DNA of 39,140 nt from Porpidia crustulata (lineage: Eukaryota), in NCBI GenBank assembly GCA_964255105.1, contig CAXUWE010000005.1:1-39140 (forward strand), read 5' to 3'. The translations under genes and the position numbers were made by a program. Below, in pieces: positions 1-37,369 of the stretch. Position 1 is the first letter of the stretch. Each line of letters starts with the position of its first letter. The notes under the pieces were generated by a model that was given only the letters and a program-made list of their open reading frames with translations, ran no database searches and had not been told where the DNA came from.

Positions 1-1
1 A

Positions 2-1939: not shown

Positions 1940-4816
1940 ATGATGCTGTTCCTTTACTTGCTCGTCCTCGTTGCCGCACCGGTCCTCTCGTTCTCCAAAC
2001 AGAATCGTGGATTACGCGGACGAAGCCCTCAGGTTGTCAAGCATGGAATGTTTCCTGGCAGCATCAACAAACAAAGTGGTCAAAGCAGCAAATTTGGGGA
2101 AAGAGCTCCTATCTATCGACGTCAAGCTTCTCCCCCTGCGTCCTGCGGCTCAAGAAATCCATTAGCCATCAAGGCACCTAAGTCGAATATCTTCGCAGGT
2201 TTGACCAACGACGAGGCGGCTGCCGTAACGTCTTTTCTTCATGGTCAGAGCAGGCTGAATCTGACAGCAGCTGCGACTGCGACTGAGTGAACTCTCCCAG
2301 AATCCCGGAGCAAGCCATATATCAGGCTAAAATATGTATAGTTGGGACAACAAACTTCTGCAGGTGGAACTCTTGCAACCAAATAAATCCGACGCACTTT
2401 CCTATTTGAACTCCAGCGCGGCGGCCCCAGTCCGCTATGCTCGAGCCGTCATTCAATTCGGTGCCACTTTGGAGCCCTACATTCAGGAATACCAGGTTGG
2501 ACCTTTACCCGTTGTCAATGGATCAACCGCCTTGGCTTCACTGGACTCTATTTACAACAAGGGCAAGGGTTCCATCCGCGTCTACGATCAAGACTCAGTA
2601 GCATTAGTAGCATTCTCGTACCAGATCAGTACCGGTATTGCTGATATCACCCAGTCTCTGCTCAATGGCGTAAGTCGATACCTCACACATGTCAACCATG
2701 CTGACTTCCTTGAGAAGACGGCCTTAGGAGTTCCAAACGACACTCTGGCCATTGCCGGCAGTGCGCCGTTGACGTTTGAAGATAACAAAGTTTTCCAGTG
2801 GAACCAATTTTACAGCATCAATACGACCCCATGTCTCGACGAATATTTATTGCAAAGCGGCCTCGAATTCAAAACTGAAATTACTGGTCGTGATCCCGCA
2901 AAGTGGTCCGTTGTTGCCTGGCAATACAACGGAATCTTCTATGAGTCGGAGATGGCTTTCCGTCAGGCGTTGAATTCCTCCACCTTCACCAGGCCAGGTC
3001 CGACTTCCGATGGCCCCTGGGCCTGCACAGACTACCATGGTGGCTCTTTCCCTCATGACGAGCTCCATCCACCGGTTCCGGTGCAACCAGATGGCCCACG
3101 GTTCGCTGTAGATGAGCAGGAGGGATACATAGAATGGAGTACGTCAACACAATCCCTCGAGCAGTCTTCAGAGTACCCAGGCTAACAATTGCCAAAGTGG
3201 ACTTTAGTTTCTATCTCTCCTCGACCAGAGATCGGGGTATGCAGCTAAACAACGTCGCATACAAAGGCGAGAGATTCATCTACGAGGTGGGACTTCAGGA
3301 AGCCGTAGCTCATTACGCCTCCGCATCCGACCCATTCCAGGCCTCGAATGCGTATCTCGATAGCGAATTTGGATTTGGTCAATCCTCCTTCCAACTCGTC
3401 AGTGGCTTCGATTGTCCTGCATATGCCACTTACCTGAATACCTCATTCTACATCGAGGAGACGACTCATACCCACCCAAGCAGCATCTGCCTGTTTGAAT
3501 TTGATACCGGGTATCCCATCCAACGCCACACTGCACCCAGCTATGTCAGCGTCACCAAGAATATTGCTTTCATTGTGCGCAGTGTTGCAACCGTTGGTAA
3601 CTACGACTATATGTTCGATTACGAATTCTACCTCGATGGATCAATCCATGTTACCGTTCGTGCGTCGGGATATATCCAGTCTTCATTCTGGACTACAGGC
3701 AACCCTATCAACGACGGTTTCCATATTCACGATCACGTGCTGGGGTCAATGCACGATCATGTGTTGAACTACAAGTTAGATCTCGACGTGGCCGGAACAG
3801 CTAATAGTCTCGTGAAGAACGCTCTAGTCCCCACCACTCAAGTGTGAGTATACTACACAATTTCTTTTGATTCGAATGGTGCTCTAATGGAGGCATCAGG
3901 TACCCTTGGTCCAACGGCAAAGCCAGGAGTACAATGACATTTGACCGCTCCTTCATCACCTCCGAAAACGAGGGAAAATTGAACTGGGACGTCAACAACG
4001 GCGTCATGTATTCCGTGGTGAACAAAGACGCGCCCAATCAATACGGAGAATATCGCGGCTTCAAATTCTTGCCAGGCAAGTCCACTCAAATTTGTCTCCT
4101 AGGGTTCCCAAAGTTGACATTGAGACCAGCAACCGGGAATAGAAATTATCTCACAGTCCAAAACTCCAGTACCCTCGGTGCCTCTGTGAATTGGGCGACG
4201 AACCATTTTTATGCGGTTCAACGCAAGGATAATGAGCCGCATAGCGCGTATCCGTACAATTCGTACGATCCAAATAACCCAGTGGTCGACTTTGATAAGT
4301 TTTTCAATGGGGAGAGTCTTGATCAGGAGGATATCGTTATGTAAGCCAGCATTCCCATGCTCTGTCCTTCGATCACTGTTTGAGGTCGGTGACTAACCGA
4401 GTTTTGAAACGCAGCTATTTCAATCTTGGCATGCATCACGTACCAGATACTTCCGACATCCCCAACACGGTCCTCACGGTAAGCCTTACTCCTCCCCTTC
4501 CCATCTTCTCTTTAATTAGTCTAACCGCTAACAGACCTCCCACTCCTCCATGATAATCGCCCCCTCAAACTTCTTCGACGGCGACCCCTCCCGCAGTACT
4601 ATCCACCAAACACGCATCAACGTCATCAACGGCACCGTGACCGACGCGCTGACCTTTGGCGCTACACAGCCGTCTGGCTCTATCGATTGGTCTTGTACAG
4701 CGCCAAATTTGCAGTCATTTATTGGGGAGGAGTATATTAGTAAGTATCCGTATGAGCCGGATGCGCAGCAGGTTGGGAATTTGGGGGCTGGGACGGGAGT
4801 TGGCGGGCCACCGTAA
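1940..4816 (+). CDS. Secreted copper-containing (TPQ) amine oxidase, lysyl-oxidase(PPLO)-like; exons 1940-2286, 2342-2669, 2718-3138, 3198-3843, 3900-4075, 4130-4340, 4415-4478, 4535-4816 (824 aa)
   Basis: Hydrophobic N-terminus MMLFLYLLVLVAAPVLS. TPQ consensus TVGNYDY, Cu-ligand motifs SMHDHVLNYKLDLDVAG and NLGMHHVP, and a candidate catalytic Asp in AYLD. Seven 48-74 nt introns with branch-point motifs join the ORF fragments into one frame (2475 nt): TDWDNK, EWMDFSF, QVYPWS, DIVIYFNLG, VLTTSHSS. Many N-x-S/T sequons. Confidence 0.93.
2670..2717 (+). other. In-frame, stop-free 48-nt intron (amine oxidase intron 2)
   Basis: GTAAGT donor at 2670, GCTGAC branch at 2700-2705, AAG acceptor ending 2717. 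Splicing removes VSRYLTHVNHADFLEK and gives LLNG-TALG. Confidence 0.75.
4076..4129 (+). other. Non-canonical GC-AG intron, 54 nt, in-frame and stop-free (amine oxidase intron 5)
   Basis: AG|GCAAGT donor context, TTGAC branch at 4114-4118, CAG acceptor ending 4129. Splicing gives FKFLP-A-TGNRNYLTVQNSS. Confidence 0.65.
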
Positions 4817-6593
4817 TTGAGGTAGAACATGTATAGGTTTGGGAGTAGCAGCGACTTGTTGTGGAGGTGAGAAAGATGTCGATTGCTTGCTCAAAGCGGC
4901 TCAAAGGATTAGGATCCCGTTATGTACCATCCGGGAAGCTCGAGACATAGTCACAGATTAGACAATGCAATTGCAGAAACATCCGAGTTCTGGCTGGCGC
5001 AGTGCATTATTTGTGGGAGCCAAGGACACCACGTAGCCAGCGAATAGCGGCAACGATAACGCCGGAAGATTGTTAAGATGAGGGTGGAATTGAACGTTGA
5101 ATCATCTACAGACCCGATATTCGGGATATCTATACCTGAGTCAGCATTTGAGGAGCGTCGTTAACCCAAAGGGGCTTAGCGATGCACGTCAGAGAACTGA
5201 GGCAACGGTGTATCTAGATAAGCGGCTCATGGTTCTATTGCCCGCTACTTAAACCGTTCCTTACTCCGCATCCCGTCTGAACAGTGCGTGGACGTACTCG
5301 TATATTGGAAAGTCCGCTCCTCTGGTCTACGTCTGAGCAAGCAAGTCGCTATTCCTATGGGCAATCGCTCCTGGAACGCCCCTAACGTTGCCGCTTTCAC
5401 CACAGATTGCTATCTTGATCAGATACCTTCAAAGAGCTTACCAAACGTGAGCAAGCGGTCCTACATCACCAAAACTTTTTACCTCATCGCACAGCCTTTG
5501 AAGTCAGTGAGATGACTCTGTGTCAGGGTTTGCAGCAAGTCAATGCGTTCAAACGCAGTTCATTCAGATTCGCAGCCAATGATCTCTACAGTAGATCTAA
5601 AACCTTCTACAACTTAACACGGTTGATGAAAATAATGCAGTCACCGACTGAAGCCTTTCCTTCCATGATGACTAGAAAATGTGTGAAAAGGAGGAGCACA
5701 ATCACACTTGACATTGGCCCTACATCATCGAGATCTCCGGCAGTGCGTCCGAGTAAAGAGCATAAACCGCTTTACAAAGATCCTATCACAAGCCCGCTTC
5801 CTTCGCCAAATCTGTGCGGGGTATCAGCAGAGATTTGATCGTCCCCTCACATTGTTCTAAAGGGGAGGTCATGTCTGGCAACGGCGCATAGGTCTTATTA
5901 ATGGACAATACAGAATTCCGAGTCTGCTGCTGTTGCGAAATGGAATCTTGCTTGCACTCTGCCCTTTATTTCCCGAGGTGAAGATGATCGTCGATAGGGT
6001 TGGGTGCGCGATGATAATTCGATCGCACAGGAGCTTGAGTATCGAACATTTCCGCTTTGATGTGCTTCGTCATTTGACTTTGTGTCTGCAGTTTTGATTG
6101 TAGCTCTTGACCGTGATCGCCGCTGCAAGAGCTTTTCATCGGTGAACAAATGGCTACAGAAACTCGGTATCATCTGGCAGGCGACGACTAATGCAACGAT
6201 ATGATATTATCCGACACCACCTCTCTCGCAGCACGGATCGGCGAGGAGCATTATGTTCAAGTGATCTCGGACCCCCGCTCTCGTCGACTTTAATACTTGA
6301 TATTTAGGCAACTCCACGGGGCTTTGTTAGATCAATCATGCCACCTCTTTCATCCCCTCTCCTCTTGAGCTTGCTCCCAGCGTGTAGATGGCCATAGGGT
6401 ACTTCTCTACAAAAATTTAACCATCTGATTACGCATTCGTGCCCGAATTCTATTGTCTAAGAAACAGTATCCGGGGTGGTATCATACTCACCATATAGCG
6501 GACGAGTTAGGAAAAACTTTTCGGATATCTATAATATCTAATCATAAGTTATGTACTGATTGCACGTATACTACCCTCCCTTCGCCTTTATTC

Positions 6594-9500
6594 TTAAAAG
6601 TCTCTCGCAACATTCTCCTTAAGCTCCTCTGCAACACAGCTGTTGTATAGCTGCCGGAAGGCTGATGACGGTTGCGTCAATAGCACATGTGGGCTTCCAA
6701 ATTCTATCAGGGTCCCATTGTCCATCACAGCTACTTTGTCAAAGTCTGTGATAGTGTCCAACTTGTGAGCTACTGCTAGGATCGTGTGCTTCGAGAACTT
6801 CTGTCGGATGATCGTTTGGATCAACTTGTCCGTAACGTCGTCAACACTAGGGAAAACATTAGTTGCGTCTTGACTTCATGGCGAGAAAAATTATGCACCA
6901 AGAACTCACCTGCTTGTCGCTTCATCAAGGACGAGGACTGAACTGCGTCGGAGCAGTACTTGCGCAAAACATAACAGCTGCTTCTGACCATGAGAAAGAT
7001 TGACAGCGTCAATGCTAGCATCAAGCCCGCCTTTGTCTCGGAGAACATCCCAGAGCCGCACATCCTCTAGTGCACCAATGATTGCCTTATCAGAAGCCTT
7101 CTTGTAAGGATCCACATTCAGACGAACAGTTCCATGAATCATGAAGACGTCTTGAGGCAGCCCAATAATTCTAGAGCGGACTACCTCGCTTGGAAGCGTA
7201 GAGGTGTCGACACCATCAATACTTATGGAGCCCCCATGAAGCTCTATCATTCCGAAGATGGCTAGAATGAGTGAGCTTTTCCCGCTGCCTGTCCGCCCAC
7301 AGACACCAATCTTTTCACCTGCTTGAACAGACATCGTCAAATTTTTTAATACCATTCGCGACGAATCATAACTGGCATAGACCGAATTGAATTCAATGCC
7401 ACCTTGTGGCGGCCAGCCAGGGGGAGGGCCTGCCTTTCCGTGAGACGACTCCTCGCGGTCAGTGCGAGCCGCAAAATTTTTGATCCTGGCGACTGCTCCA
7501 ATGTGCGTCTCCAACATTGTCCAGTACTGAATGACCAGCTTGATGTGCTGGCTGAACAGAACAACATTCAGTAAAGCGATGCCCACCGACGCTCCTTGGA
7601 TAGTGCCTCGCAGCTGGGAAACGAGTACCATCAACAAAACTCCGACTGCAGCTACAAGCATGTCTAGAACCAATTGCAGCCAGCGTTGAACTGACCAAAG
7701 AAGGTAGAACGGTCTCTGAGATAGATCGAGGAGATGATTGGTTTTTTTGCCCAGGTCATTTTGCCACCCGAAAGCACGCACAGTCATCAGGCCCCCCAAA
7801 ATCTCCGTGAACTGGGAGTAGAGTGGAGCCTTGGCCTCCAGATCAAGGAATCGCAGCTGTCTCGACGTTCTCAGGTAAAATCTTTGGATGAGATAAAGAG
7901 CTATGAACCAGACTGGAAAAGAGATAGCAGCATAGGTCGAGGTGACCCCGATAAGAATAATCTGAGCAAGACACAACACAGCAGCGGCAAATACATTCAA
8001 AGCCGAAGTAGGTAAGTCCATGTCGATAAGCTGGAGATCCTGGGAGAATCTGTTGAGCGTGACTCCAGTATCTGTTGTCGAAAAGAACGACAGTGGAGCG
8101 GCTAGAACAGTATCGAGCAGCTTTTGGTGGAAATTTTCACCTGCTTGTGACACCATGGTGACAAGTAGCTGCCAGCAGCCGACCACGAGGCATGCTAGAC
8201 CACCAACCCCGAGCAGAGCATAGATACCCAGGTAATACCCTAGTTTTTGATTTGGATGGTCAGAATTTGCAGTAGACCACCATCCTAGCCAGACTTGTGG
8301 GAAGGTCATCGCGAAGACATAACCGCAGATGGCAGCCACGAAACTTATCACGGTGAATCTTCCAACCGTCTTAACGTAATATCCATACACAGAAAGGTCG
8401 CCAGTCCGCCTATTGGCGTCGAGCTCGGATTCACTCAGGCCCTTGATTGCCTTCACTGCGATAGGGGCATGGATAGGCTCGTCGGGAGAAGAGAAAAGCC
8501 GATCAAATTTGGCCTCCTTTGTTTGAACCCTCCAGTCTGGTTCCGGCAAATCAAGGTTGGAAACGTAACCGCCACTCGCATTAAGCTGTTGGAAATTTCC
8601 CTGCTCTGAAACATTGCCCTGTTCATCGAGAACGACGATATGATCTGCAAATGGCAAGCGCTTGGTGGAAGAGGAAGCAAGAATGACGGTCGCACACTGA
8701 CGGTGGAAGATTCCATCCACGCCAAGCAGGCCGTGGAAAATGCGATTTTCTGTGTCAAGGTCGAGACCACTGAAGACGTCATCGAGGATGCAGAGAGCTC
8801 GTCGCGCGTATGCAGCACGAGCCAAGGCGAGCCGCTGACACTGGCCACCGCTCAATTTAATGCCTTTGCTTCCAATCTGTGTTTGATCCCCGAGTGGCAA
8901 TTGCTGCAGATCCTCGTTTAAAGCGCACCCCTTCAGTACACAGTTGTACCATCGTTCATCAAACTCTTCGAACATCAATATGCTGTCGCGGATGGAACTA
9001 TTCATGAGGAATGGAGACTGCTCGCAGTACGCGATATCATCAGAGAAGAGCTGCACCGTTCCAGATATTGTTGGTATTTCACCAAGGAGCGCTTTTAGCA
9101 AGACAGTCTTTCCGCATCCTACCGGACCAATTATCATAGTAAGCTTTGCACGGGGAACCTTCATATCTAAAGATCTGATCAAAGGTTCTTTCTCGCCTTC
9201 AAAGCCGAAGCTCGCGCCTCGGACGATGAGCGCATCGCCTTCAGGGTTCGAGAATGGAATCATAACTTTTTCCAGCACATCAAGAGCGGGGGCTTTTTCG
9301 CTGCGAGAGAGTATCTCAGTCCCACTACCATCTGTTTGTGGACTTTCAATTTTGGAATTGGACTGGGAACTCGAGGTCTTCGCGGAACTGTCAGGAAAGG
9401 GCTTCGACCTTTGATCCACGTGTTCGCATTTTCCCAAGAAAGCCTGAATGCGATCGAAGCAGCCCACAGAGCCCGCAAATTGGGCCATAGCCATAAGTAG

Positions 9501-11255
9501 CGAAGCCAAAGGCTCGGAGAGCAGCGCGAAAAGCGAAAGCGACGTGAAGGCTTTGCTGATAGTCAGGGTGGTATTACCATCCTTCAGCGCTAAAAGCGAG
9601 AACACAGCGAAAGTCAAAACAGGAGCGATCAGTTGTGTAGCGTACGAAAAAAAAAGGTTGGCTATCAGGAGCCTACGAAATCTACCGGAAACGCTAAGTT
9701 CCTCCATCCTTAAACCGTGAAGACTTGTATTGAAGACGTCTGTTAAAGCGCACATCTTGACCCGTTTCATTGAGCCTAGCATGGTGGTTGTGGCGCTGAT
9801 CCGTCGTTCAATTGCTTCAAGCCAGTGCGCTTGACTTTGCATGATGACATTCAAAATCAAAACGGAGCCCAGCAACGATACTGCATACACAATCAGAAGC
9901 AGACTCAAGCTAGAGAACGAACCCGGCCCATTGCGAGGGTCGACTTACCAACGGCAACAGCAATTGGAATTGCGCAGGCTGCTCCCAGCTGACGTTCCAG
10001 CAGATATATCGCGACACCGATTTCAATGATGTTCGCCCAGATTTCATGCATTGTTTGCCAACCGTTCGTTATTCGCTCGATGTCAGCGCTCATCAACGTC
10101 AGTGACGCTGATGGATCAACGTCATCTGACTTCAGCAAAGACGTCTTGGCAAAGAGCATCGAGATTAGACCTCCCCTGGCCATTGTGATCGAGCGATAAG
10201 CCCAATGCTGATACTGGGCCATCGTGATCGCAATACCAACGTACACGATGAGATAGGCGGCAATAAGTCCGTATCCAGCATTTATTGAAGCTGGCGTGAT
10301 TGGCTGTGAAGAAAGATCAACCGCTCGAGTGATCAGGAATGGTTGGCAAAAGGTGAAGCCGATGTATACGAGGCGAGGCGGGACAGCGCAGAGAAAGTCC
10401 CATTTGAATCTCTGGAAAAAAAGCAGCAGCAGTGAATGAGGACCCTTGACCGCGACGTTCTCCCAGGTTTTCTTCACCCGTGAATAGAGATAATCGGACG
10501 ATAAATGTTTGTCCAGCCCGTATAGCTCTTCCAATTCCAGTGACTTGGAGTGGCCTTTGATGAAAAGAGGATTCAGCCACCAGAAGAAAGCCTGGTTATA
10601 GAAGCCTGCGGTCGACTCAGGTGTGGCAGCTTTCCATTTGCAGCGCAAAATGGTTCGTTTCTCAATTGCTTCGACTATAACAAGAACAGTCTTGATGGCG
10701 ACCGAGACTGTCATGACAGGGGCGATCGTCGACTGATATCCTTGTAACCATAACGTCCTGACTTGAGCAATATCGAAAAGCAGAGTTATGAATAACCAAG
10801 AATTCAAGATGAATGAGGGCCGGAGCGTTCGCTGGTGTTCCGTGAAGGATAGGACTCCAAGGGCGCATGCGCCGACAACCCTGATAACAGCGTTTGCTAT
10901 CGAGGCTCTGGTTCTGATCGCTGCTGGTTCCGCCCACAGCGCTAGAAGAGCAACTTGGATACCTCCATAGACTACGTACAGCACCTATACGATCTCAACT
11001 TCAGCTCGGCGTTAGTGTCTATGCGAGAAGTGCACATACCAATTTAGAAGTCGATAAGAGACTCTGATTGACCTTAATACTCCTCTTGATCAGGTATGAG
11101 ATCCGGAGAGGGACCACCAGAAGCAGCAAACAGAGCGGAAGGAGAGATAAGATTGACTCCTCAAAAAATAAGGTGAAATCGAATCCTCCCCGGCAGCTGC
11201 CGGCCCATGGCCCAAACGTATCGTCGACCCATGAACATGAAGCAGGCGCTACCAT
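6594..11255 (-). CDS. ABC transporter, ABCC/MRP subfamily (N-terminal TM extension-TMD1-NBD1-TMD2-NBD2); exons 11255-11040, 10984-9949, 9880-6910, 6846-6594 (1491 aa)
   Basis: Fungal ABCC N-terminus (DDTFGP..CRGGFDFTLFFEESIL). NBD1 has GPVGCGKT, LSGGQ and ILDD. NBD2 has GRTGSGKS, LSHGQ, VLDEATS and AHKL. TMD2 has the NRFSQDLQLID motif. Introns 10985-11039 (GTATGT..TAG), 9881-9948 (GTAAGT..CAG) and 6847-6909 (GTGAGT..TAG) restore a single frame. Confidence 0.95.
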
Positions 11256-13531
11256 GTTTGCGTGTGGACAATACAAGTCACACAAAAGTATGCATCTCAC
11301 GTGGAAATCAACAGTGCAGTTACGGCAATGTATCTACCAGACGCAGAGGTGAAGATATCAGTAGAGCGGGACCACAAAGATCGGAGTCGGATATGTCATA
11401 TAAACCATGCGAGGTCTGAAACTACCTACAGAATGCCCCGGTGCACGTTCTGCCGTTGGACCAAAGATCGGGAGCACGACGCTCGTGGCTATGACCCGTT
11501 GTGTAGAATCGGCCTGGGTTCGTCATGGGTCAAGCCACCCGGATCTCTCCACTCAATTCTCCTCAAGTGAAGTTCGAGACGACAAATCACAAGCTGTTGG
11601 GTCTATCCCCATGAGGCCGCTGATATGCTCATCGATATGGTGGGACAACCCCCAGGGATGCTGTGGGCCCATCGACGAAGGTTAATAGGATCGGTTAGCA
11701 GGCGCCCGGCCAAATTTCCAGTCGTGTTGGCTTTTTCAGCGGTCATCATGATCGACAGCTGAGCCTAGAGGACAACACCCATCGGGCGACGTCTTTGTTT
11801 GCCTATACAACCCATACGGTGGTTTGGCATGGGCGTTGCCCCTTGGAGGCATGCCACAGCGCCACCATCGGCTTCCCCACTCATCGACGTTTTTGTTGAT
11901 GTACCTGACAAAGCAGGCACTAATGCAACGACATACCGTGTATTCTTTGTCATTACACTAGTACAACCTGTCATGAAAATTTGGTGGAGTCCGACGGGCA
12001 ACGATAGGCGCGGCTGATCTGCACCCCGCACCCGAGCTAGCTATCCTGGTTTAGTTTAACTTCAACTGGGGATTTGGTCCTACCCGAAGCAACCTGTCAT
12101 GCATGCAAGAATTCACCAACTGGCGCCACAACAAACGACATTTGCGCAAGGAACCTCAACAGTCTTGCCGGTCAACGAGCAACTGGTAGCGGAACACCGA
12201 TTTCCGGTGGCTTTGGCAGACACGCACCGTTACACTCGTTAGTCAGTCGTTTAATCCCTCTCGTTTGCTTTTCCTTCTCGCATAGAGTACCTTACCTTAC
12301 TCTAGAGTCGCTCGCGCTACGACGCTTTACCGTCGGGTCTGAGGACGGAAGAACCCGCAAGGGCCCGTCAAGCACAAAATGAACGACACAACAATTCATT
12401 ATTGACGTTGTTGAGCTTTCGATTCGATGTCTCCGCGTACGCTATTACTCTACGGCTGTACAGTAAGCAATGGATGAGTTTCCGCACTGACCGGCACCGT
12501 TAGGTAAAGGAAATCGGTTCCCGTTGCACTTCGACCGCGTGCGACTGCAAGCACCGTTGATTTCTGCAGGACATTAGCCTAGACTTACATAGGTACCGAG
12601 TCATTGCGCATAACGACGCTGCAGCACTAAGCCTCCACTTCTGCCTTCATTTCAGCAAAATTTGACGCGATCCACTGAGCTCAAGATGGCATGGGTCTGC
12701 TTGCTTGTTCCTCTCATTAAGCACGCAATATCGCTTGTATTTTCTCTTTTCAGAGACTCCGAGAATCATGTGAGGCTGCCCAGCGCCGCAGTCTTTAATT
12801 TAAAAACTTGATTAATCCTTAGCCTGCCTTTTGCGAATCAGAGACGCCACGCGTGAGGTGGAGTTTTTACCCAAATCGCACTCATGAGGATGGTGCAATT
12901 TCACTTGAACCTATGGCGGATCGGTGCTATTTTTAGGCTGAGACGTAGTTCATCAAAGATGGAGACGGCAGACACAGCGGATTGGTGTGACTCGGATGAG
13001 TATAGGCCCTTCCCACTACGACTGCTACTTCTCTACATGGCACGCTTGCTCGTATACCACGGAACTCCACCGTCGTCACGATGGGTCCTTGCTCTCGCCT
13101 GGAGCCGAACGGCACAACGAGCGCGAAGATATGGCTCGCCACCTTGCCGCCATGGATGGTAACATGACGGCATGGCTTGAAAGAGAAGACAATGACACTT
13201 AGAGTAAGGTCAGAAGAGTATACCAAATGGGTGTGATTGGGCCGTAGAACAGCTCCTGTGACGTTGAAAGTGTCAGCATTTTCATCGAAAATGCGAAAAC
13301 TCGGTACTCCCCAGACTCTAGGAATCCCAACCCCAGGTTTAGTTCATGCAATCCTGTGACGCTTTTACATTGTTTTTCACGATGCCACAGACCATTTCCA
13401 AGGAAGGAAGAATCCACACCCCTCATAATTTGTTTATGAAAACGCTGCTTCTGCACTGACCCTAACAGCAGACATCACATTAATAACACTGTATTAGACA
13501 TTTTTTGGCTTACCACGAAAAATTTGTCGTT
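11256..13531. promoter_or_regulatory. Divergent intergenic/promoter region shared by the ABC transporter and the NRPS
   Basis: About 2.3 kb between head-to-head ATGs at 11255 (-) and 13532 (+). The short ORFs inside have no recognisable motifs. Confidence 0.6.
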
Positions 13532-14280
13532 ATGGAGAACCAAGCCTCTTGTACTTCCTTATCAGGTCCAGACACCGAAGCTTGCAGGCTCCCTCTCTTG
13601 GATGGCGAGACTAGCGGGTCTGCTGAGAACATCACGACTGAAGTTCGGCTTGAGAATGCTTCTAGCATTCTCAATGTCTGCCGGCGTGACAAGATTCGGT
13701 TTTCTAGCACAGTTTGTACGGCTTGGGCACTTCTGCTACGGTGCTACACAGGCCAGGACCGAGTCACGTTCGAGTACACAACCGATAACGCGAGTGCTAC
13801 GGCATCCTTCCTCCGGATGGACTTCGGTGAGGATGAGATTCTGTCCAAGCACACGGAGAGCGCCAGAGATGTCATTACCGGCATTGAGCAGAAGCGACTC
13901 GTTGCAACAAGATTAAGCGCGGCTAGCGTAAATTATGAAACGGCGTCACCGTTGGTCAATACTGCAGTCTGCATTTGCGATTCGGAGATGCGTTCGGGAA
14001 TGCTTGCTAAGACAGCCGAGAAATCCATAGAGGTAAGTGGCTACACATGTGGCCGCAAAACAATATCGACAGTTAGTCTAATGACTCAACTCAGGGACAT
14101 GTCATATTGCTAGTGGAAGTCATCAATGGAATTCCGAGACTGTCGTTGAGGTCGTGGAGCTCTGATGCTTCGTTGATCTATATCGACAGTCTTGCGGACG
14201 CTTTCAGTCATGTCTTGGAGCTGCTTGCTCAATCGTCTGGCCAGCGATTGAAAGAAGTAGACTATTTGAGCGATACTAAC
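13532..14280 (+). other. NRPS N-terminal truncated condensation domain (C-terminal lobe only)
   Basis: TEACRLPLL..TAWALLLRCYTGQDRVTF..NTAV resembles the second half of C domains (compare AWALTLEAYTGSKDICY in module 2). No HHxxxDG motif is present. Confidence 0.7.
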
Positions 14281-26200: not shown

Positions 26201-29200
26201 GAGAACCTGACATACCAGCTGAATCTCGAAGACCTTCCTGGACTCAATTCATTTTGTGCCCAAAATTGTGCGACGCTATCAAATGTCTTGCAACTGGTTT
26301 GGTCCCTGGTCCTTCGCGTCTTTACCGGCAACGAGAACATCTGTTTTGGCTACATCACCTCTGGCAGAGACGTCCCTATTCAAGGTATTCAAGATACTGT
26401 GGGACTCTTCATCTCAATGCTTGTGTGTCATCTGGAACTAGATGATAATCTCGAGGTCAATAAAGCTCTCGAGCAGATTCAAGCAGATTACTCAGATAGC
26501 ATGGGACATCAAGCCTTCTCCTTGAGTAACATGCAACATGAGATGGGCGGGGGACATGCACTTTTCAACACCGTATTCACATTTCAGAGACGGTTCAGGT
26601 CATCGGATAAGGGGAGTGAGACGCTTGAGTACGAAGTGATCTCCGCATATGACCCGGGAGAATATCCCCTCACTGTCAATGTCGAAGCTTTGGAGCAGAG
26701 TATCGACGTCCAATTCAACTACTGGACAGACTTCCTGTGTGAAACCCAAGTCTCGAACATCTCAAACACATTTGAGCAGATCTTACATTCGATCATGGAT
26801 CCCGCCTCTTCTCGAATGACAGTCGGAGGCATTGCATTTTGCAGCGAAAAACAACAACAGCAAATTTTGGGCTGGAACGATACGTCTCTTCCCAAAGTTG
26901 AGAAATGCGTTCATGATATCATCTACCATCAATCACAGACGCTGCCGTTATCTGCACCGGCAATTTGCTCGTGGGATGAAAATCTTACCTATGTCAAGCT
27001 TATGTCTTTGGCGAAGAGACTTGCCAAGCACCTCGTTGCGCTTGGTGTTGGGCCTGAGACGTACGTTCCACTGTGCTTCGAGAAATCCGCGTGGGCTGTT
27101 GTGGCTCTCTTGGGTGTACTTGAGGCCGGCGGAGCTTTCGTTCCATTGGAGCCTTCACATCCTGAGAGTCGCATCAAGTATATCATCGACAATGTAAGGG
27201 CGAGGTTTGTGCTTTGCTCTGAAAGATACTGCGAAATATTTGCCGATATACCTGGTGTCGAAACTTTTGTCGTGGACGAATCTTTACCAAGACGGCCACA
27301 GCCAAGTGCACCATCTGGAGTTGCAGTGAAACAGCCGACTCCAGCTAACGCGGCATATTTGATTTTCACCAGCGGGACCACGGGGCTGCCTAAAGGCACA
27401 GTGATTTCTCACCATGCTTTCGCAACTGGTGCTACATCACACGCACCTGCAATCCTCATGCGCCAGTCATCTCGAGTCCTTCAATTCTCTAATCTCTGTT
27501 TCGACGCCTCTGTCATGGAAATCCTGACCACCTTGATAACTGGAGCATGTATCTGCATTCCAAGCGATGAAGAGCGCATGAATAACATCTCTGGGGCGAT
27601 CAATCGTATGGGAGTGACGTGGACGCTTTTGACACCATCAGTCGCGAATATGCTGGATCCGGAAAAGGTGCCAAGTCTCCAGGTGCTTGTCACGGGAGGA
27701 GAAGCGATGCAAGCAAGACATATCGCTAAGTGGTGTAGCTCCACTGCTTTGGTCAACGCTTATGGACCCAGTGAGTGTGCGGTCATTGCCACCACAAGCG
27801 TCAAGGTGGATTTGGATGGATCGCGTCTTAATGAAGACTCTTCCAATATTGGTCGCGGCGTTGGTTGTCGATGCTGGGTTGTGAATCCGCACGACCACAA
27901 CCTGCTTATGCCGGTTGGCAGTGTAGGAGAGCTAATTATAGAGGGAAACACCGTCGCACGGGGCTACCTTAATAACGAAGAAAAGACTGCCAGAGCTTTC
28001 ATTATGCGCCCTGATTGGATGAGCTACAACGATGATGAGATTGTTGCTGGCCATTCTCGGCTGCTTTACAAGACAGGAGACTTAGTACGCTACAGTACGA
28101 CGGGTGACCTTATTTACGTCACAAGAAAAGACACGCAGGTTAAACTGAATGGGTTGAGGATTGAGTTGGGCGATATCGAACATCACGTTAAGGAACATCT
28201 TCCCGGTCGTATCGAGGCAGCTGTCGAAATGGCCGCGCCCGCCGGTCAACCAACTGCATTGGCGGTTTTCATGTGTCCCAAAGATGATAGCTCGTCTACG
28301 GACGCTTTGATCTTGCCCATGTCTCAGAGCATCACCGCGCTCGGTAAAGATCTCAAAATGAAGCTCACCAAAGTGCTTCCGGGATACATGGTTCCTTCAC
28401 TCTACTTCCCAATCTCCCACATGCCCTGGACAGCCTCTGGTAAGCTCGACAGGGTCAGACTTCGCAAGGCAGTCACAGCACTTCTGCAGGAGGAGCTGGC
28501 TCCATTCAGGCTAGCAAGCTCATCCAGCAGCAAGAAGAGTCAGGAGCCGAGTACTGAAATGGAGAAGAGTCTTCGACACTTATGGGCATCTCTCTTGGGC
28601 ATTAGCCCTGAATCCATCAGTACGAGTGATAACTTCTTCGACATTGGTGGTGACAGTGTCATTGGGATGAAACTCGGCTCCGCAGCAAGGGCAGAGCGTA
28701 TCTCGCTTAGCGTTTTCGATATTTTCCGCAAACCAACTTTGGCTGAGATGGCAGAAGCTTGCGTTGAGCTTGAAGAGGACCGTGAGACGGTGTCCAAACA
28801 GTTTAGCCTCCTTGGCGACATTGTCAGTAACCTTGATCAGCACATTGATGAATTAGCGGGACATTGTGCTGTGAGCAAAGAAAAGGTGGTAGATGCCTAC
28901 CCTTGCAGCCCTCTCCAAGAAGGCCTGATTACGATCTCTGTAAGCCAGGCCGGAGCTTACGTTGCTCACAATGTTTTCCGCCTACCTGAGTCTGTTGATG
29001 TCGGGCAATTTCAGGCAGCATGGCAGATCGCAGTTGAGGAAATGGACATTCTGAGGACGCGGATTGTTCATACAAGCTTGGACACCTTTGTCCAAGTTGT
29101 TCTGAGCAATGAAGCCATAGACTGGCATTATGCAAAGTCAACAAAAGAGGCGTCAGATACAGCACAGCTACCTGAACACAATGGCGGCCCACTTGCTAGA

Positions 29201-32200
29201 TTCACCATCGTGACTGGTATTGATTGCTACTTTGTCTGGTCAATACATCACGCCATCTACGACGGCTGGAGCATGCCTCGAATGCTTCAGCGAGTCGAGG
29301 ACATTTACTGCCAATGTTCCCCGCAACCCGTCCAGACTCCCTACGCCAGATACATTAGCTACCTTCTACATTTCGACAAAGAAGCATCTCATCGCTTTTG
29401 GCAAGACAAGTTCCACAACCTCCAGTCTTACCACTTTCCTCCGGCTCTACGCAGTTCAGTAAGCGAGCAAGAAGTCGATTTCAAGACTTTACGCCACGTT
29501 GTGCAAATACCGCACAAGCCGAAGATCACGGGTGTCACTTTACCAACCCTGATTCGGGGTGCGTGGGCAATCTTATTGTCTGCGCATACAGGTGGATCCG
29601 AGGATGTGGTGTTTGGGGAAAGTTTGACGGGTAGAGATCTTCCGCTTGACGGGATCATTGATATGTTGGGTCCGACATTGACGACGGTTCCCACGAGGAT
29701 CAGCGTCAGGCGAGAGTTGACGGTGGCGGAGTTCTTGCGGGATGTCCATCAGAAAGCCGCGGAGGTTATCCCCAACCAACATGTTGGCCTGCAAAACATC
29801 AAAAGGCTGAGTGCTGAGACGGCACTCGCTTGTGATTTCCGAAACCTTCTGGTCATCCAAACAACAGCGAAAGAAGATGATGTGGAGAAAAGTAATTTTT
29901 GGCAGCCGCAAGACAATGGCGTTAGCTCGAAGTTCTTTAATTATCCTCTTGTGGTGGATTGCGATGCAAGCGGATTAAGCGTCCGGCTTGATTTCCACTA
30001 CAATGAGGTGTACGTATCGAAGTGGTTGATCGAGAGAATGGTGCACCAACTCGAACATGTGCTGGTCGATCTTTGTGCTGCGACTCCCGTGAGCGAAACA
30101 AGACTGGGAGGCTTGGAGATCGTGAGCGAAAAGGACATTGAGCTCCTTCAGAAGTGGAACAATTACCAGCCAATGCCTGTTGAGAATACAATTGGCGAGC
30201 TTTTCTTGCAACAGGTCAAGCGAGCTCCTTCGACCCTGGCTGTCTGTTCCTGGGACGGCAACTTTACGTACAGAGAGCTGAAGTTACATGTAGAACGGCT
30301 AGCTGGGCATCTGCTGCAACTGGGCGTCAAGCCTGAGACCCTGGTCCCGTTCTGTGTGGATAAGTCGCGATGGGCAATCGTGGTGCAACTTGGCATCATG
30401 ATTGCTGGAGGCGCTATGGTTCCTTTAGACCCATCGCACCCCTTTGGGCGGCACGAGGGTATTATTCAAGATACACGAGCTCGGTTCCTTGTTTGCTCTC
30501 CGCAATACACCGAGAAATACCAGCGGTTGACTGACATCGTGGTCCCGGTCGATGAGCAATCGTTACTGAATTTACCTAGACGTGATACCGAAGCCGTACC
30601 ACTCACTCGACTCTCAAGTAAAAATGCGGCCTATGTCATCTTCACATCAGGCTCCACGGGCCGTCCAAAAGGCGTCGTCATCGAGCATGAAGCCGTGTGC
30701 TCAGGCTCGGAAGCTTATTGCAAAGCTTTGTTGATGGATTCAAGTGCCAGAGTCTTCAACTTCGCATCCTTCACTTTCGACGCTGCAATAATGGAGAGTT
30801 TATCGCCCTTGACTATAGGCGCGTGTGTATGCATACCCAACGAGGAGGAAAAGATGTCGGACCTGGCTTCTGCTTTCAATAGCGTTAGACCAACATGGGC
30901 CTTTTTGACTCCATCCGTTGCAAGTCTTATCCAACCGTCAGATGTGCCGTCCTTAAAAATCTTAGTGGTTGGTGGTGAGACAATGTCAGAGGAGATTGTG
31001 CTCAAATGGGGAGAGGATGTCACGCTCGTTAATGGATATGGTCCGACAGAAGCGTGTGTCATTGCCGTGACCAACCGCAAACTTTCGGAGCAGAAAGACC
31101 CCAAGAACATTGGATATGCACACCACAATAGCCGCGCCTGGATCACTGATGCTACTGATCACAATCGCTTGGCGCCTTTAGGTTGTGTGGGGGAACTAGC
31201 CCTCGAAGGTCCAACTCTTGCCCGCGAATATCTGCAAGACCAAGAGAAGACCGCAAGCACCTTCATTCAACGTCCAGCCTGGAGCAGCAGAGTTGGAGAT
31301 GTGCAGCGTCTCTATAAAACCGGAGACTTAGTCAAGTACAATGTGGACGGCAGCATCGTCTTTTGCGGAAGGAAAGACAACCAGATCAAATTAAATGGCC
31401 AACGCATCGAGCTGGGAGAAATCGAGTCAACGCTTCTGCTTCACGAGCGTATTCAACACGCCGTCGTTGTCTTACCTAACGAAGGCTCGTGCAAGAACAG
31501 ATTGGTGGCAGTTGTTTCATTGGCTGATATTGCCTCCTCCGCTTTAGGAGAATCAGTAGCAACATCAAAAAATGCGTGCACACTCATCCAGGATTCCCGA
31601 ATGGAGACAGCACAAGCTTATTTGAGAGAAGTTCGAGACTTCCTGGCGGAGACATTGCCTGCTTATATGATCCCAGCGATGTGGGCGATTGTGGAAACGG
31701 TTCCAATCCTCGTGTCTGGCAAAGCTGATAAGAAACAACTTGGGAAATGGATCAAAGGTCTAGATAGCGCCGCTTACAAACAACTCACGGCACAAGAAAG
31801 CATGAGCATCGACTTGGTAGAACTGACCAAAACGGCGCAACGACTGAGGGAGATCTGGGCAGCTGTTTTTGACAGACCTTTAGAGGAGGTCGATCCTGGC
31901 CGGTCATTTATGGGCCAAGGTGGTGACTCTCTGCAATCTATGTCCATTGTATCCCGTTGTCGGAAGATCGGTGTAAGCATCACGGTGCAGAATGTACTAC
32001 AAAGCAAGTCGCTCATCCAGCTTGCCAAGTTGATTGACTCGAACAAGACTTCGGTGAAACCGACGAATGCATCAAGTCTCAAAGAGAAGGTTGATCAGCC
32101 ATTTGCGCTTTCGCCTGTGCAGCAGCTGTATTTTCGAGTGGCAGGGTCCTTAAGCGACCATACGCGCAATGGCCGTTTCAATCAAAGCCAGATGCTCAAG

Positions 32201-35200
32201 GTCAACCGGCATATAAGTACTGGTGCAATCAGACATGCTCTGGATATCATCGTGGGGCAGCATTCTATGTTCAGAGCCAAATTCTCCAGAAACACGCATG
32301 GTACATGGCAGCAAAAAATCGCTTCTACTACGGCCAACGCTTACCGCCTTCAAACGCACCATGTTGATGACTTGAAACAAATGGTACCCGTGGTGGCAGA
32401 AAGTCAGACGTGCCTTAATATTACGATGGGGCCTTTACTTGCCGTAGACTACTTTTGCACGCGGCAAGATGAATGGATCCTCTCTCTGGTTGCCCACCAT
32501 CTAATCGTCGACGTCGTGTCTTGGAGTATCATCATCCAACAATTAGAAGGCTTGCTTACTTCAGAGGATAATCAGACGACCGAAAACCCTATGCCATTCC
32601 AAGTCTGGCTTGAATTGCAGCAGAATCACACCCATCAGGAGCTTGTCAAGAACGTCCTACCTTTCGAGATTAGCCCCGCCAATACTGGCTATTGGGATAT
32701 GGCGGAGCGGCTAAACGTGTATGGGGATACCAAAACCCAAAGCTTTATACTTAAACGATCATATACTGAGTCAGTCCTTGGTGATTCTAACGACACGTAC
32801 CGTACGCAGCCCGTTGAGCTTCTCTTATCTTCGCTGGTCTTTTCTTTCAAGCGCGTCTTCTCAGATCGTAGCGCCCCAGTCATATTCAACGAAAGTCACG
32901 GCCGGGAGACGTGGGACGACTCAATAGACCTTTCCGGTACAGTAGGATGGTTCACCACCCTTTCTCCGATGTATTTACCTGTTGAGTCTTCTTCCGAGGA
33001 AACTGTCTTGGATACAGTGAAGCGAGCGAAAGACCAGAGGCGCTCGATCCCCGGCAGTGGGAGGGATTATTTCGCTAATAGGTTCTTGACGCAAGATGGG
33101 CGAAACCGATGCGCGGAGCATGAGCCAATGGAGATTTTGTTCAACTACACAGGGCGCTCCCAACAACAAGGCGGCAACGGTAGTGGTTCCCTTCTACAAC
33201 CCATAGACATCCAGTTAGATGAGAAGGATGAGAAGCTTACCGCAGACGTTGGTCCTGAGACAGTGCGACTGGCATTGATCGAGATAAGTGCGGGTGTGTC
33301 TGACGGCTTGTTCAGATTCTCCTTCATATACAATAGGCACATGAAACACCAAAACAAGATCCTCGATTGGGTCACGGAATGTCAGCGCACGCTTGAAGAT
33401 ATGACGGGACAACTACTAAACGCCTCGCCGGAGCCCACACTCAGCGACTTCCCTCTTCTTCCCACCAAAGCTAATGGGATGGCAAGACATTTCAACGAGA
33501 CTCTACCTGATATCGGGATCTCTAACATGGATGAGGTAGAGGATATGATGGTTTGCGCGCCTATGCAGGACGGCTTGCTCCTTTCACAGATCAGACAGCC
33601 GGATAATTATCTCAGCTATATGATCTCCGAGGTGAAGAAAGGACATAATGCGCGGGTTGACGGTCGGCGATTAGTCCGAGCGTGGCAGAAGGTCGTGGAT
33701 CACCACCAGATGCTTAGGACAACGTTTGTGTATAGTGTGTGCCAGGGACATGCATTTGATCAGGTGGTGATGAAGTATGCGAATGATGGCGCGAAGTTGG
33801 TACAGTGTAAGGATGAAGAAGTCGAAGAGGAGCTTGCGAAGATATCATTGAGGGAAGTCAACAGTAAAAGGCAACCGACGCTTCCCCATCAATTATCAGT
33901 CTGTACAACGGATTCGGGTAAAGTCTTTATGAAGCTGGAGTGCAATCATGCCGTCATTGATGGAATCTCGGTAGGGATAATCAAACGCGATTTGGCCTCC
34001 GCCTACCAAGACCGACTCGAAGGACCCAGACCATTATACTCCGATTACATTAAATACATTGCCCATCGAACCCTCACAACCTCAGTCCAATTCTGGACTG
34101 GATATCTCAAAGGGGTCCAGTACACTCATCTTCCACCTTTGAATCCTGGCCCTCGTGAAACAGAGCGCATAAATTCAATTTACATACCCTTTGACCGATT
34201 CGACGAGTTGCAATCCTTTTGCCGGACAAATGATTTGACGCTCTCGAACATCATGCTTGCAGCTTGGGCTCTCGTTCTACGCCGATACACCGCTCAGGAT
34301 GACGTTTGCTTTGGGAATTTGTCTGCTGGCCGGGATGCACCGGTGGATGGAATCCAAAACACAGTCGGCGCATTCATCAATATGTTGGTTTGTCGAGTCG
34401 ATTTCGCCAGTCACAGGAATAGGACATTGACAGACGTGTTCCGGAAAGTCCAAAGCGACTTTGTCGAAAGCTTGCCGTATCAGCAATGCCCGCTTGCTAG
34501 GATCCAGCATGGTCTCGAGCTTCCAGCTGGAGAGGCTATGTTCAATACTGCGTGCTCACTACAGAGTCAAGGATCGTCGGGTGAGGGAGTGGGGGAGGCG
34601 AACACAATTCGGTTTGAGGAGGTCGCAGGGCATGATCCCACCGAGTATGCTGTCACCGTCAACATCAATACTGCAACCGGGTTTGAGATGGCATGCATCA
34701 AGCACTGGACGTCTCACATTTCTGTTCCCGAAGCGGAAGCTCTTTCAAGGGTTTATGCTCATGTGCTCGGTTGGGTTCTAACTAATCCGGATCAGACAAT
34801 TGCAACGCTTGAGGAACCAAAGCCAAGCTTGAAGATCAAGGAGAATCGTAGGCCACCTGCAATAAGAAAAGCTAGTGGAGTACGATTTCAGGCTATAGAT
34901 GGCCAAATACAAGATACCAAGGGCACCGACAGCATACTTGACCAGCCGAAACTTCCAGTTGAGACATATCGCAAGATTGTCAAAGACTGTGTAAAGGAAG
35001 TTCTTGAACAGTTGATTAAGTCGGGCGAATATACCATTCCAAAGAAAGACGCAGAAGATCAAATGTCAAACGCGTTGTCGACAAAAGTCGACGAAACCCA
35101 GAAAAAGGAGTCGAAGTCATCGAAGTCATCGAAGCCATCGGATACCACTTCCAAAACCCTGCGCTCGCTTTGGAGCTCCCTGCTCGACATACCCAAGCGA

Positions 35201-37369
35201 GAGGTACATGACAATGATTCCTTCCTAGAGCTTGGAGGGGACTCGATTCTCGCGATGGAGCTCGCAAGTAATGCCCAAAACGCTGGGCTACAACTTACGG
35301 TGGCCGACATCTTCAATAAACCCATATTTTCGGAAATGGCTCATGCCAGTGCAGTTGCGATGCAAAAAAGGTTTCACAAGGCAGCGATGCGACGCACGGC
35401 TTCCAATCAAGCTGCAATTACCGAGCAGAGGAATCTAGAGCGACGTACACTGTTTTCAGGCCTGGGAGCAGCAGACGTGGAAACCTTCATTCAAGACTAT
35501 ATCTGCCCGAGAATTGGCGTCTTCCGCGGAGGCATAACTGATGTACTTCCAGTAACTGACTTCCAAGCCCTTTCTGTGATTGGAGCCATGCTCAAATCAC
35601 GATGGATGATGAACTATTTCTTCTTTGACGGGCAAGGATATCTGGATTTGACTCGCCTTAAGAGAGGCATCTTTAAGCTCGTACAGAGCTTCGATATCTT
35701 ACGCACGGTCTTTGTATATTGCGGTGACCGCTTCTGGCAAGTTGTCCTCCGGAAACTCCGACCACAATTTCACGTATACCACACAGAAGAAGACTTTGAC
35801 GTCTTCACTCGCAACCTTCGCGAAGCCAGCATGGAAGTTTACCCACGACTGGGTGAAGCCTACGTCCAGATTAGCGTTATTAAAAAACCAGGCACTAATA
35901 TCCACCGCATCATGCTACGGCTATCTCATGCGCAATACGACGGTATTTGCCTTCCAAAAATCATCGAGGCTCTCAAGGCATGCTACGAGGGCAAAGAGGT
36001 GGTGCCATCACCATCCTTTTCTAACTATGTCTTGCAAGCCACGGGTCCTGCCAACCGGAAAAGCTATGATTACTGGAAAGCTCTTTTGCAAGGCTCCTCG
36101 ATGACAAGCGTTCCGCAGCGTGAACAGCCAAAGTACAATGTCTCGGACCAAGCATCTTCCATAGTGAAGAAGACAATCAAACTATCAGCCCTTAATTCCA
36201 AGAATGTCACGCCAGCCACGATCTTTAAAGCTGCTTGGGCTCTCACTTTAGCTCAATTGACAGGCAAGTCTGATATTGTATTTGGAAATCTAATCAGCGG
36301 GCGAAACGCTGCAGTGTATGGTGTCGAGGATATTGTTGGCCCTTGTGTTAACATTGTCCCCGTCAGGATTACTCTTGGGTCGAAGGCGACAGCTCTAGAT
36401 CTCCTCCGTATGATCCAGAGCCAGCAGGTTACCGCCATGCCGCACGAATCGCTCGGCTTCCAAGAGATTATCCAGCAATGCACCGATTGGCCAGAATGGA
36501 CATACTTCTCGAGCGTGGTGCAACATCAGAATATCTCTCAAGAAATGCCGCTGCGTCTGGACGGTCGGCAGTACAAAGTTGGCTCCGTCGGCACTGGAGA
36601 CAATCTATCTGACTTCACCCTCTTGTCCACACCAATGGAGGGCGGCACGGTAGAAGTGGCCTTGGGCGTGTGCGGCGACGGCACCATTCCAGCATCGCTT
36701 GCCGAAAAGGCCCTTGACATGACATGCTCTTTCGCCGAAACCCTCGCCCGCCGCCCTGACGACACTTTACCCTCCTTCCTCCAAAATCCCAACAGGAAAG
36801 CAATGGCTCAACTCCAGGATCTTGTACAACCATCAGAGCAAGAAAGACCGTCTTCTCCCTCCCTGACCGCCAATCTAAGCGGCCTCCGAAAACGCGAAAT
36901 CTACGACATGGTCGACATCCTCCGCCGCTCCTGGCGCGTTGTCCTTCCCAAAGGGAGACAGCTCTCATCCAGTGATATCAATCTCCATACATCCTTTTAC
37001 TCCCTTGGCGGCAACATCATCGCCATGGGCGCTCTATACGCTTCCCTACACGATGAGGGTTACACCGACATCCGACTCGAGGATCTCATCGAGCGAAGCA
37101 CAATGGGCGAGCAGATTGCCTTGCTCTCATCTCGGGCGCGGAGCCGTCACCGAACGATCAGGGGGCAGAGGGAGGAAAGTGAGAGCGAACTTGATCCGAG
37201 CTCGTCGAGCACTTTGGCCGGGATGCCGGAGGCGGGCACGGGGCATGGGGAGAGGAGTCCTGAGAGGGGAGACGAGGTGGCAGGGTCGGCGACGAGGGAA
37301 GGCGAGGGGGTGAAGGTGAAGTGGTGGAGTAAGTTCACGAGGAGGATGAGGACAGGAAAAGCGGAGTAG
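13532..37369 (+). CDS. Multimodular nonribosomal peptide synthetase (5 A, 3 E, 7 T-like domains), Pes1/NPS4/AbNPS2-like; exons 13532-14032, 14095-23372, 23434-37369 (7904 aa)
   Basis: Five A domains (TSG[S/T]TG.PKG, YGP.E, YKTGDL, SGK). Six GGDS carrier motifs and one GGNI. Three E domains (HHL.[VI]D.VSW, E.HGRE, TVGWFT). Six full C domains. Introns 14033-14094 (GTAAGT..CTAAT..CAG) and 23373-23433 (GTAAGT..CTGAC..TAG) join three ORFs in frame, for example YKTGDLVR|YAEDG..GRKDSQ.KLHGQRLELGEIE. Family assignment comes from domain order and the neighbouring ABCC gene. Confidence 0.96.
14320..17560 (+). other. NRPS module 1: A1-T1-E (D-residue)
   Basis: YVLWTSGSTGEPKG near 14770, LGGDS (Ser 16066), HHLVVDLVSW, FNEGHGRE, RTVGWFT. 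Boundaries approximate. Confidence 0.9.
17620..20800 (+). other. NRPS module 2: C-A2-T2 (L-residue)
   Basis: SHTLIDG near 18045, IYTSGSTGKPKG, MGGDS near 20680. Boundaries approximate. Confidence 0.9.
20920..25500 (+). other. NRPS module 3: C-A3-T3-E (D-residue)
   Basis: HHALYDR at 21295, IFTSGSTGKPKG, LGGDS near 24000, HHLIIDIVSW, FNEAHGRE. Boundaries approximate. Confidence 0.9.
25560..28770 (+). other. NRPS module 4: C-A4-T4 (L-residue)
   Basis: SHSICDG near 25975, IFTSGTTGLPKG, IGGDS near 28650. Boundaries approximate. Confidence 0.9.
28880..33460 (+). other. NRPS module 5: C-A5-T5-E (D-residue)
   Basis: HHAIYDG near 29246, IFTSGSTGRPKG, QGGDS near 31920, HHLIVDVVSW, FNESHGRE. Boundaries approximate. 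Confidence 0.9.
33530..37125 (+). other. NRPS terminal region: C-(linker, no A)-T6-C(CT-like)-T7*(degenerate)
   Basis: NHAVIDG near 33944, LGGDS near 35235, SHAQYDG near 35924 (terminal CT-type motif), FYSLGGNII at 36995-37021. No thioesterase or reductase domain is visible. Confidence 0.85.

Follow-up and report, generated by a model that had tools for sequence, protein, structure and literature searches.

The 39,140-base contig CAXUWE010000005.1 of Porpidia crustulata (assembly GCA_964255105.1) carries, side by side, genes for a nonribosomal peptide synthetase (NRPS), an ABCC-type exporter and a secreted copper amine oxidase, and this raises the question of what such an oxidase does beside a peptide-making and peptide-exporting pair. 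The window, that is, the whole stretch analysed, is the entire contig (C5 of the 22.9-Mb fungal assembly G000). According to our analysis, the NRPS and the exporter represent, with high confidence, a known water-repellent-peptide (WARP) locus of the NRPS4/Pes1/AbNPS2 type; the pair is already known, and the oxidase beside it is a candidate for a ring-forming step that has not yet been explained. We tentatively propose, at chances just short of even, that the oxidase converts the side chain of an exported lysine or ornithine to an aldehyde that closes an intramolecular ring. A sequence-only reading of the same DNA had suggested that an exported peptide could be oxidised outside the cell and cross-linked into a wall coating, an interpretation that our results partly supported.

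The three genes (Table 1) are real, intact and under purifying selection. Their adjacency, already noted in the sequence-only reading, was confirmed by intact gene models and by a single Logan contig from run X1, which probably represents the source data; this contig covers positions 26-15000 at even depth and without a difference, and a chimeric contig is ruled out. In the Logan runs X2 and X4 the oxidase was not covered, and in X9 it was present in fragments only; these three runs were not used as evidence. The nearest named relatives are three Xylographa species, with 86-89% identity over the three genes; the ABC loci compared below are 79 metagenome loci fetched with the ABC gene. Versus two of these, L005 and L008, dN/dS is 0.15-0.17 for the NRPS (parts tested), 0.09-0.10 for the exporter and 0.03-0.12 for the oxidase (exons 2 and 4). 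We found no second NRPS of this kind in G000, where the cluster is single-copy.

Table 1. Features of the window, with the three genes of the locus first.
Feature	Position	Strand	Basis
Secreted ANAO/PPLO-type copper amine oxidase, 824 aa (stop excluded), 8 exons	1940..4817	+	Pfam, motifs, PDB matches
ABCC/MRP-type exporter, 1,491 aa, 3 introns (11039-10985, 9948-9881, 6909-6847)	11255..6594	-	Pfam, gene model
WARP/NRPS4-type NRPS, 7,904 aa, introns 14033-14094 and 23373-23433	13532..37369	+	Domain and motif analysis
A2 specificity pocket region (E239, D278, N331)	19489..19866	+	Pocket positions verified with GrsA 1amu
Divergent intergenic region between ABC and NRPS genes	11256..13531	.	Gene models
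Non-coding spacer, alignable to L005/L008	5300..6593	.	Mean column identity of 72%; numerous indels that break the frame
Short repeat (5162-5205) and right breakpoint of local inversion	5162..5300	.	Comparison with relatives' loci
Mtf2-family gene, truncated by contig end	37835..39140	+	Pfam Mtf2 E 6.8e-08
Dispersed repeat end, hairpin and two CCCTAA units; contig breaks there	1..52	.	Repeat matches, hairpin z -2.07

WARP clusters are defined by an NRPS with an upstream ABC gene, Lecanoromycetes being among the named carriers (preprint 10.64898/2026.07.13.738209). They are further characterised by a cyclic peptide product and by a surface that becomes wettable upon deletion. The window has this upstream ABC gene, the two genes forming a divergent pair 2.3 kb apart, and their tags are neighbours in at least 10 named lichen-fungus genomes. 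The exporter shows the ABCC architecture, with TMD0 (recognised in the orthologue of X. parallela, at 88% identity), two membrane domains and two nucleotide-binding domains. The domain order of the NRPS, in terms of condensation (C), adenylation (A), thiolation (T) and epimerisation (E) domains, is partial C - A1TE - C A2T - C A3TE - C A4T - C A5TE - C T - C(terminal) - degenerate T. The E motifs, at residues 1137, 3765 and 6413, fall in modules 1, 3 and 5 of the five, that is, in every other module, giving a D-L-D-L-D pattern, and the C-T-C tail (extra residue and cyclisation) has its T at 7193 and its terminal C motif, SHAQYDG, at 7424. As for the hydrophobic residues of WARPs, the predicted codes of the A3-A5 pockets are aliphatic, and those of A1 and A2 contain acids. 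The last T domain (about 36880-36960, residue 7784) is without the phosphopantetheine serine, and the N-terminal stretch 13532-14029 is Pfam-blank and resembles a partial condensation domain (Atlas score 0.97).

An ABC gene and alternating E domains are likewise found in the WARP clusters of F. graminearum (NRPS4/fusahexin) and Ap. arundinis (NRPS4/apiosporins) and in those of HcpA/Pes1 (fungisporins), AbNPS2 and ChNPS4. Fusarium NRPS4 also shares the five modules, the D-L-D-L-D pattern and the C-T-C end, and the A3 code of HcpA, DAMFVGGVFK in the codes listed in PMC4041764, is one residue away from the window A5 pocket. The kinship with AbNPS2 and NRPS4, which are linked to surface hydrophobicity and lie beside ABC genes, had been anticipated from the sequence alone and holds. 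Unlike the window locus, the described WARP clusters have no amine oxidase in the published accounts that we found; the main text of the WARP preprint (10.64898/2026.07.13.738209) mentions neither an amine oxidase nor any oxidase, and the WARP literature searched gave no lichen WARP product. Two of the loci compared, L028 with the A1 code of P. chrysogenum HcpA and L066 with a related code, both have Nup120 and a Rad51-family gene at their flanks and carry no oxidase, in agreement with the absence of an amine residue from fungisporins.

The oxidase gene has introns at 2287-2341, 2670-2717, 3139-3197, 3844-3899, 4076-4129 (GC-AG), 4341-4414 and 4479-4534; the fifth is an in-frame 54-base intron that the NCBI model of X. 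pallens reads through, which results in an insertion missing from 3pgb. The signal peptide and the intact topaquinone (TPQ) and copper site described in the sequence-only reading were both recovered: residues 1-20 are hydrophobic (a signal peptide predicted by hydropathy), a dibasic RR at 60-61 is a putative propeptide site, these features being conserved in relatives, and the catalytic set is intact, with D420 (Asp base), the TPQ motif T497-V-G-N-Y501-D-Y (497-503) and the copper histidines H551, H553 and H718. The protein contains the Pfam domains Cu_amine_oxid, N2 and DUF1965 and 11 N-glycosylation sequons, and is 87-88% identical to the Xylographa oxidases. Its top PDB matches are 3pgb (E 1.5e-79), which we take to be the Aspergillus nidulans amine oxidase (ANAO), and then the P. 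pastoris lysyl oxidase (PPLO) 1n9e (2e-54); the X. pallens orthologue matches both over its full length (E 8e-225 for 3pgb and 2e-131 for 1n9e).

The TPQ motif, Asp base, copper histidines, signal and propeptide are common to ANAO, PPLO and the window oxidase, which, judging by its sequence, is a member of this peptide-accepting group; the earlier comparison with the Pichia enzyme was therefore well founded. Unlike ANAO and PPLO, the window oxidase sits in a separate 17-row clade with enzymes of Glonium, Viridothelium, Circinaria and Nectriaceae. The channels of ANAO and PPLO are wide enough for whole peptides, according to a statement in a review (PMC3382800), and the oxidation of peptide-bound lysine by the window oxidase is a candidate activity, documented in relatives only. 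No role of ANAO or PPLO on an NRPS product was found in the literature searched.

Clade-wide linkage was observed among the close relatives. Oxidase, ABC and NRPS genes have consecutive tags in X. pallens (MMC27_006126/7/8) and X. parallela (MMC32_006828/29/30), and in X. soralifera the oxidase adjoins the ABC gene (MMC17_001045/44). ABC identity is at least 85% in 9 of the 79 metagenome loci; eight have enough flank, and in all eight (two sequence types) the oxidase is present, 5.3-5.5 kb from the ABC gene. In 10 cases the contig of an oxidase fragment is equal in size to that of an ABC or NRPS match or of locus L011. The window oxidase is convergent to the ABC gene, and in L004-L005, L007-L011 and L029 it lies on the same strand as that gene; the oxidase block of the window is inverted relative to its relatives, with repeats at both block ends, and the linkage is kept through this inversion and through a dS of 0.64-0.85. 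Moreover, oxidase P0007 and ABC P0211 (63% identity, from the other ABC clade) both lie on contigs of 65,982 bases, probably a distant second case of linkage; the coincidence has a chance expectation of 0.02 over 9x240 pairs.

We then considered which residue could offer an amine. The pockets of A1-A5 read DAIELMAVAK, DNEDSGQINK, DAMLVGAVVK, DAMLVGAVIK and DAMFVGGVIK. Acids at positions 239 and 278 of the pocket, as in A2, may go with Lys, Orn or Arg substrates, and E278 is also found in the first module of the echinocandin-type NRPS McfA, presumably an Orn-activating module. Among the 93 five-module orthologues within the best 120 matches listed, the A3 and A4 pockets differ by at most two residues in 80. 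This near-identity fits a D-Leu/L-Leu pair, so that the aldehyde residue would fall on module 2; if Fusarium NRPS4 is alike, modules 3-4 would supply the pair and module 2 the ring-forming 'Pro'. Among the codes reported in PMC7256872, those of PCR fragments that match a Neonectria NRPS include A1, A3/4 and A5-like codes also present in the Stictis-type orthologue, and this gives indirect support to the revised register. In the orthologues of Gallowayella, Squamulea, Flavoplaca and Polycauliona (P0290, P0293, P0320 and P0333) both A2 acids are lost, with Q at 239; the change implies another predicted module-2 residue and makes these fungi a natural control set.

The chemistry of two published WARPs is consistent with an amine-to-aldehyde conversion. 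For apiosporin A an m/z of 814.5 is reported and for apiosporin B one of 856.5, the Lys residue being part of an N,N-acetal imidazolidinone (preprint 10.64898/2026.07.13.738209). Rings with intact Lys would give 815.54 and 857.59 by our computation, and those in which NH3 is lost and O gained (allysine level) 814.51 and 856.55; the apiosporin masses fit lysine minus 1.03 Da, the very shift predicted in the sequence-only reading, in the WARP of another fungus. As for fusahexin, Orn minus NH3, plus O and minus H2O is, by computation, isobaric with the ring residue derived from Glu-delta-aldehyde, which places the ring at the ornithine-aldehyde level. In the synthesis reported in PMC12340964, the Glu-delta-aldehyde passes quantitatively to the hemiaminal and, with acid catalysis alone, to the natural ring. 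A more abundant species corresponding to fusahexin plus H2O, reported for F. avenaceum in PMC11677700, fits an open aldehyde equally well as a hydrolysed form.

A possible mechanism can be depicted as follows. The NRPS would build a cyclic hexapeptide on the fusahexin pattern, D-X1 / L-(Lys or Orn) / D-Leu / L-Leu / D-aliphatic / L-Leu, the extra T domain taking up residue six, and the ABCC protein would export it as a more soluble, cationic precursor. Outside the cell, the copper oxidase would deaminate the single side-chain amine to the aldehyde (-1.03 Da, with release of NH3 and H2O2), which would collapse intramolecularly to a hemiaminal and then to an N,O- or N,N-acetal ring, an oxazinone as in fusahexin or an imidazolidinone as in apiosporin. 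The end product would be a neutral, insoluble peptide coating the surface non-covalently. The peptide, its export and its oxidation are steps that we infer, the role of the oxidase being the uncertain one.

The closest parallel is FmqD of the fumiquinazoline cluster, described in PMC9134587 as a secreted oxidase that carries out the final step on an NRPS product within the cell wall. In both cases a secreted oxidase encoded in the cluster, an exported NRPS product and a hemiaminal ring come together; FmqD, however, is a flavoprotein that acts on an alkaloid in a cluster with a major facilitator superfamily (MFS) transporter, whereas a copper/TPQ enzyme, an ABCC exporter and a primary amine would be involved here. 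The window oxidase does not have the flavoprotein fold, and FmqD is a works-like comparison only. No published link between a copper amine oxidase and fungal NRPS tailoring or fusahexin was found in a search that covers few subscription papers; one match concerned histone demethylase.

An incidental association must also be weighed, and we hold it to be nearly as probable as our proposal, if below even: a complete two-gene WARP locus may lie beside a general secreted amine oxidase (nitrogen scavenging, H2O2) that was inherited or transferred along in one lineage, while A2 loads Gln or a similar residue, or the aldehyde is made inside the cell by Pro oxidation, Glu or aminoadipate reduction, or loading of pyrroline-5-carboxylate or piperideine-6-carboxylate (P5C/P6C). 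Several observations count in its favour and against a role of the oxidase on the peptide. The canonical cluster consists of NRPS and ABC only, and the F. graminearum cluster is presented without an oxidase in PMC10967133. In the 34 more distant loci with at least 6 kb of flank (many redundant; NRPS visible in 23 and not in 11), the region downstream of the ABC gene never contains a copper amine oxidase, and the downstream gene families vary (Nup120/Rad51, permeases, MFS). Of 16 named genomes with both genes among the matches listed, 13 have the oxidase and the cluster on separate contigs; in six of these the contig with the cluster is longer than 100 kb (Bacidia, 2.03 vs 1.78 Mb; two Letrouitia; cf. 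Caloplaca sp. 2; Mytilinidion; A. nanangensis), the seven with cluster contigs below 100 kb being weak evidence of separation. The proposed synteny check therefore held for the three Xylographa and for the eight loci at 85% or above, and failed in most of the distant genomes that retain the same pocket. Because the spacer between oxidase and ABC gene is still alignable, the linked species must be close, and the linkage may only reflect recent ancestry. G000 has, as expected of a housekeeping gene, one ANAO-type oxidase among those found, two further copper amine oxidases being only 28% identical. Counted over 120x240 pairs, the 65,982-base coincidence has an expectation of 0.27. Finally, no promoter motif common to the oxidase upstream and the ABC-NRPS intergenic region exceeded the shuffles at k=7-8 (two shared 7-mers vs a null mean of 0.5, max 6; no shared 8-mers), and the 151 shared 6-mers (null mean 87, max 116) come from a mononucleotide shuffle and are not trusted.

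The peptide side adds to this list. The acidic A2 pocket reported in the sequence-only reading is real but not specific to the locus: acids stand at both 239 and 278 in 67 of the 93 orthologues, with at least one in 87, and Podospora and Mytilinidion have the same type (DNEDAGQINK), so that the pocket appears ancient, family-wide and not tracking oxidase linkage. A predicted Glu code in a table of PMC7256872 likewise contains D278, and Gln or Glu is a possible A2 substrate. For the 10-letter basic-substrate codes no paper was found, their shortened forms gave one match, and no A2-type pocket string was found in print. Our assignment to module 2 is contradicted by the NRPS4 register given in PMC10967133, with Pro on module 4, and is indirect. 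The masses, moreover, are silent on the identity of the enzyme and on an origin of the aldehyde in primary metabolism; oxidase-free routes to the fusahexin ring, either Pro oxidation or Glu reduction, are offered in the introduction of PMC12340964.

On the other side, the neighbour belongs to the exact enzyme class that would give the apiosporin mass shift, a second linkage in the other ABC clade is probable, the trees of NRPS and oxidase depart from taxonomy in a like manner, and the genomes with an unlinked oxidase still possess one. The oxidase matches examined are the best 120 of 698, and absence among them was not used, the Xylographa 90% cluster being represented by a 237-aa fragment. 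No other oxidase family was detected beside the distant ABC genes in a scan of 103 open reading frames (ORFs), which gave one short-chain dehydrogenase; three of these ORFs are from the window, and the other 100 or so were chosen by hand among 226 candidates in the flanks.

Two further fates of the oxidase activity were considered. In the first, the aldehyde would react with wall amines (chitosan, protein lysines) or with other peptides to give a covalent cross-linked coating, as the sequence-only reading had suggested. The same linkage and enzyme-class evidence would apply, and WARPs do localise to hyphal surfaces; however, they are also found in exudate droplets, are solvent-extractable and have been proposed to be anchored non-covalently (preprint 10.64898/2026.07.13.738209), and their residues at the aldehyde level form rings within the molecule, the hemiaminal being reached quantitatively in the fusahexin synthesis. 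Since a cyclic peptide with one amine, as the pockets predict, would be monofunctional and give at most tethering or dimers, we regard wall cross-linking as unlikely. In the second, the oxidase would be linked by function and leave the peptide untouched, its H2O2 or aldehydes serving the maturation of the surface at the WARP-making stage. The persistent linkage and the purifying selection agree with this; the upstream regions share no motif, and we consider it about as unlikely as cross-linking.

The history of the genes was assessed with quick trees of 15 chosen rows, in which the Circinaria oxidase comes from a 3.6-kb contig of a metagenome assembly. Xylographa, Circinaria and Stictis belong to Ostropomycetidae, Bacidia and Lecanora helva to Lecanorales. 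The NRPS module 2 of Xylographa and the window is sister to that of L. helva, and holding the Xylographa sequences with Stictis and Circinaria is rejected by the approximately unbiased (AU) test (p 8e-88; 1e-42 with the window rows included). The oxidase of Xylographa and the window nests with Letrouitia, Bacidia and Teloschistaceae, and its placement with Circinaria is likewise rejected (AU p 3e-8); the ABC tree, which has no Ostropomycetidae control, agrees. Both the NRPS and the oxidase trees place Xylographa among Lecanoromycetidae, against taxonomy, and this common discordance suggests that the three genes were transferred as a unit or, alternatively, an old paralogy with matched loss. 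Co-transfer of neighbours is no proof of function. The oxidase of Circinaria calcarea (P0011) is sister to Fusarium/Neonectria oxidases (P0013-P0023, Nectriaceae matches) with support 97-98, across fungal classes, a grouping that may reflect transfer, paralogy or assembly contamination.

A broader hypothesis, which we hold to be rather doubtful as a whole, would join these elements: secreted copper amine oxidases would be the missing WARP tailoring enzymes across Pezizomycotina; module 2 with a DN[E/A]D pocket would load Lys or Orn; the peptide would leave the cell as a soluble cation and be made insoluble outside by oxidation and ring closure; the 'proline' of fusahexin would be an oxidised ornithine; and the lichen locus would retain all three genes, moved as a cassette between lichen-fungus subclasses. 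In any case, the locus names a candidate enzyme and exact masses for the origin of the aldehyde-level rings of fusahexin and apiosporin. If the oxidase does act on the peptide, fungal lysyl-oxidase-like enzymes would gain a physiological substrate, an insoluble coating could be exported as a soluble precursor, the module-to-residue register of NRPS4 would be corrected, and a route into the water repellence of lichen surfaces would be opened; if it does not, this would be an ordinary WARP locus with a possible history of horizontal transfer.

As for the rest of the window, a small gene (e.g., a hydrophobin) hidden in the spacer is not supported, the longest ORF (5419-5835) having no Pfam match and the indels breaking the frame. 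The Mtf2-family gene lies outside the cassette, as far as tested. Positions 1-900 have 36 matches in G000, several of them inside contigs, and in L089-L093 the hairpin repeat is bordered by ordinary DNA, with no telomere arrays; a telomeric position of the left end was rejected, the CCCTAA units being part of the dispersed hairpin repeat. This repeat end, with its subterminal hairpin and telomere-like CCCTAA, also occurs in C40, C13, C189, C1049, C228, C282, C863, C1356 and C1069 of G000, breaks many contigs and resembles a Helitron-type 3' end.

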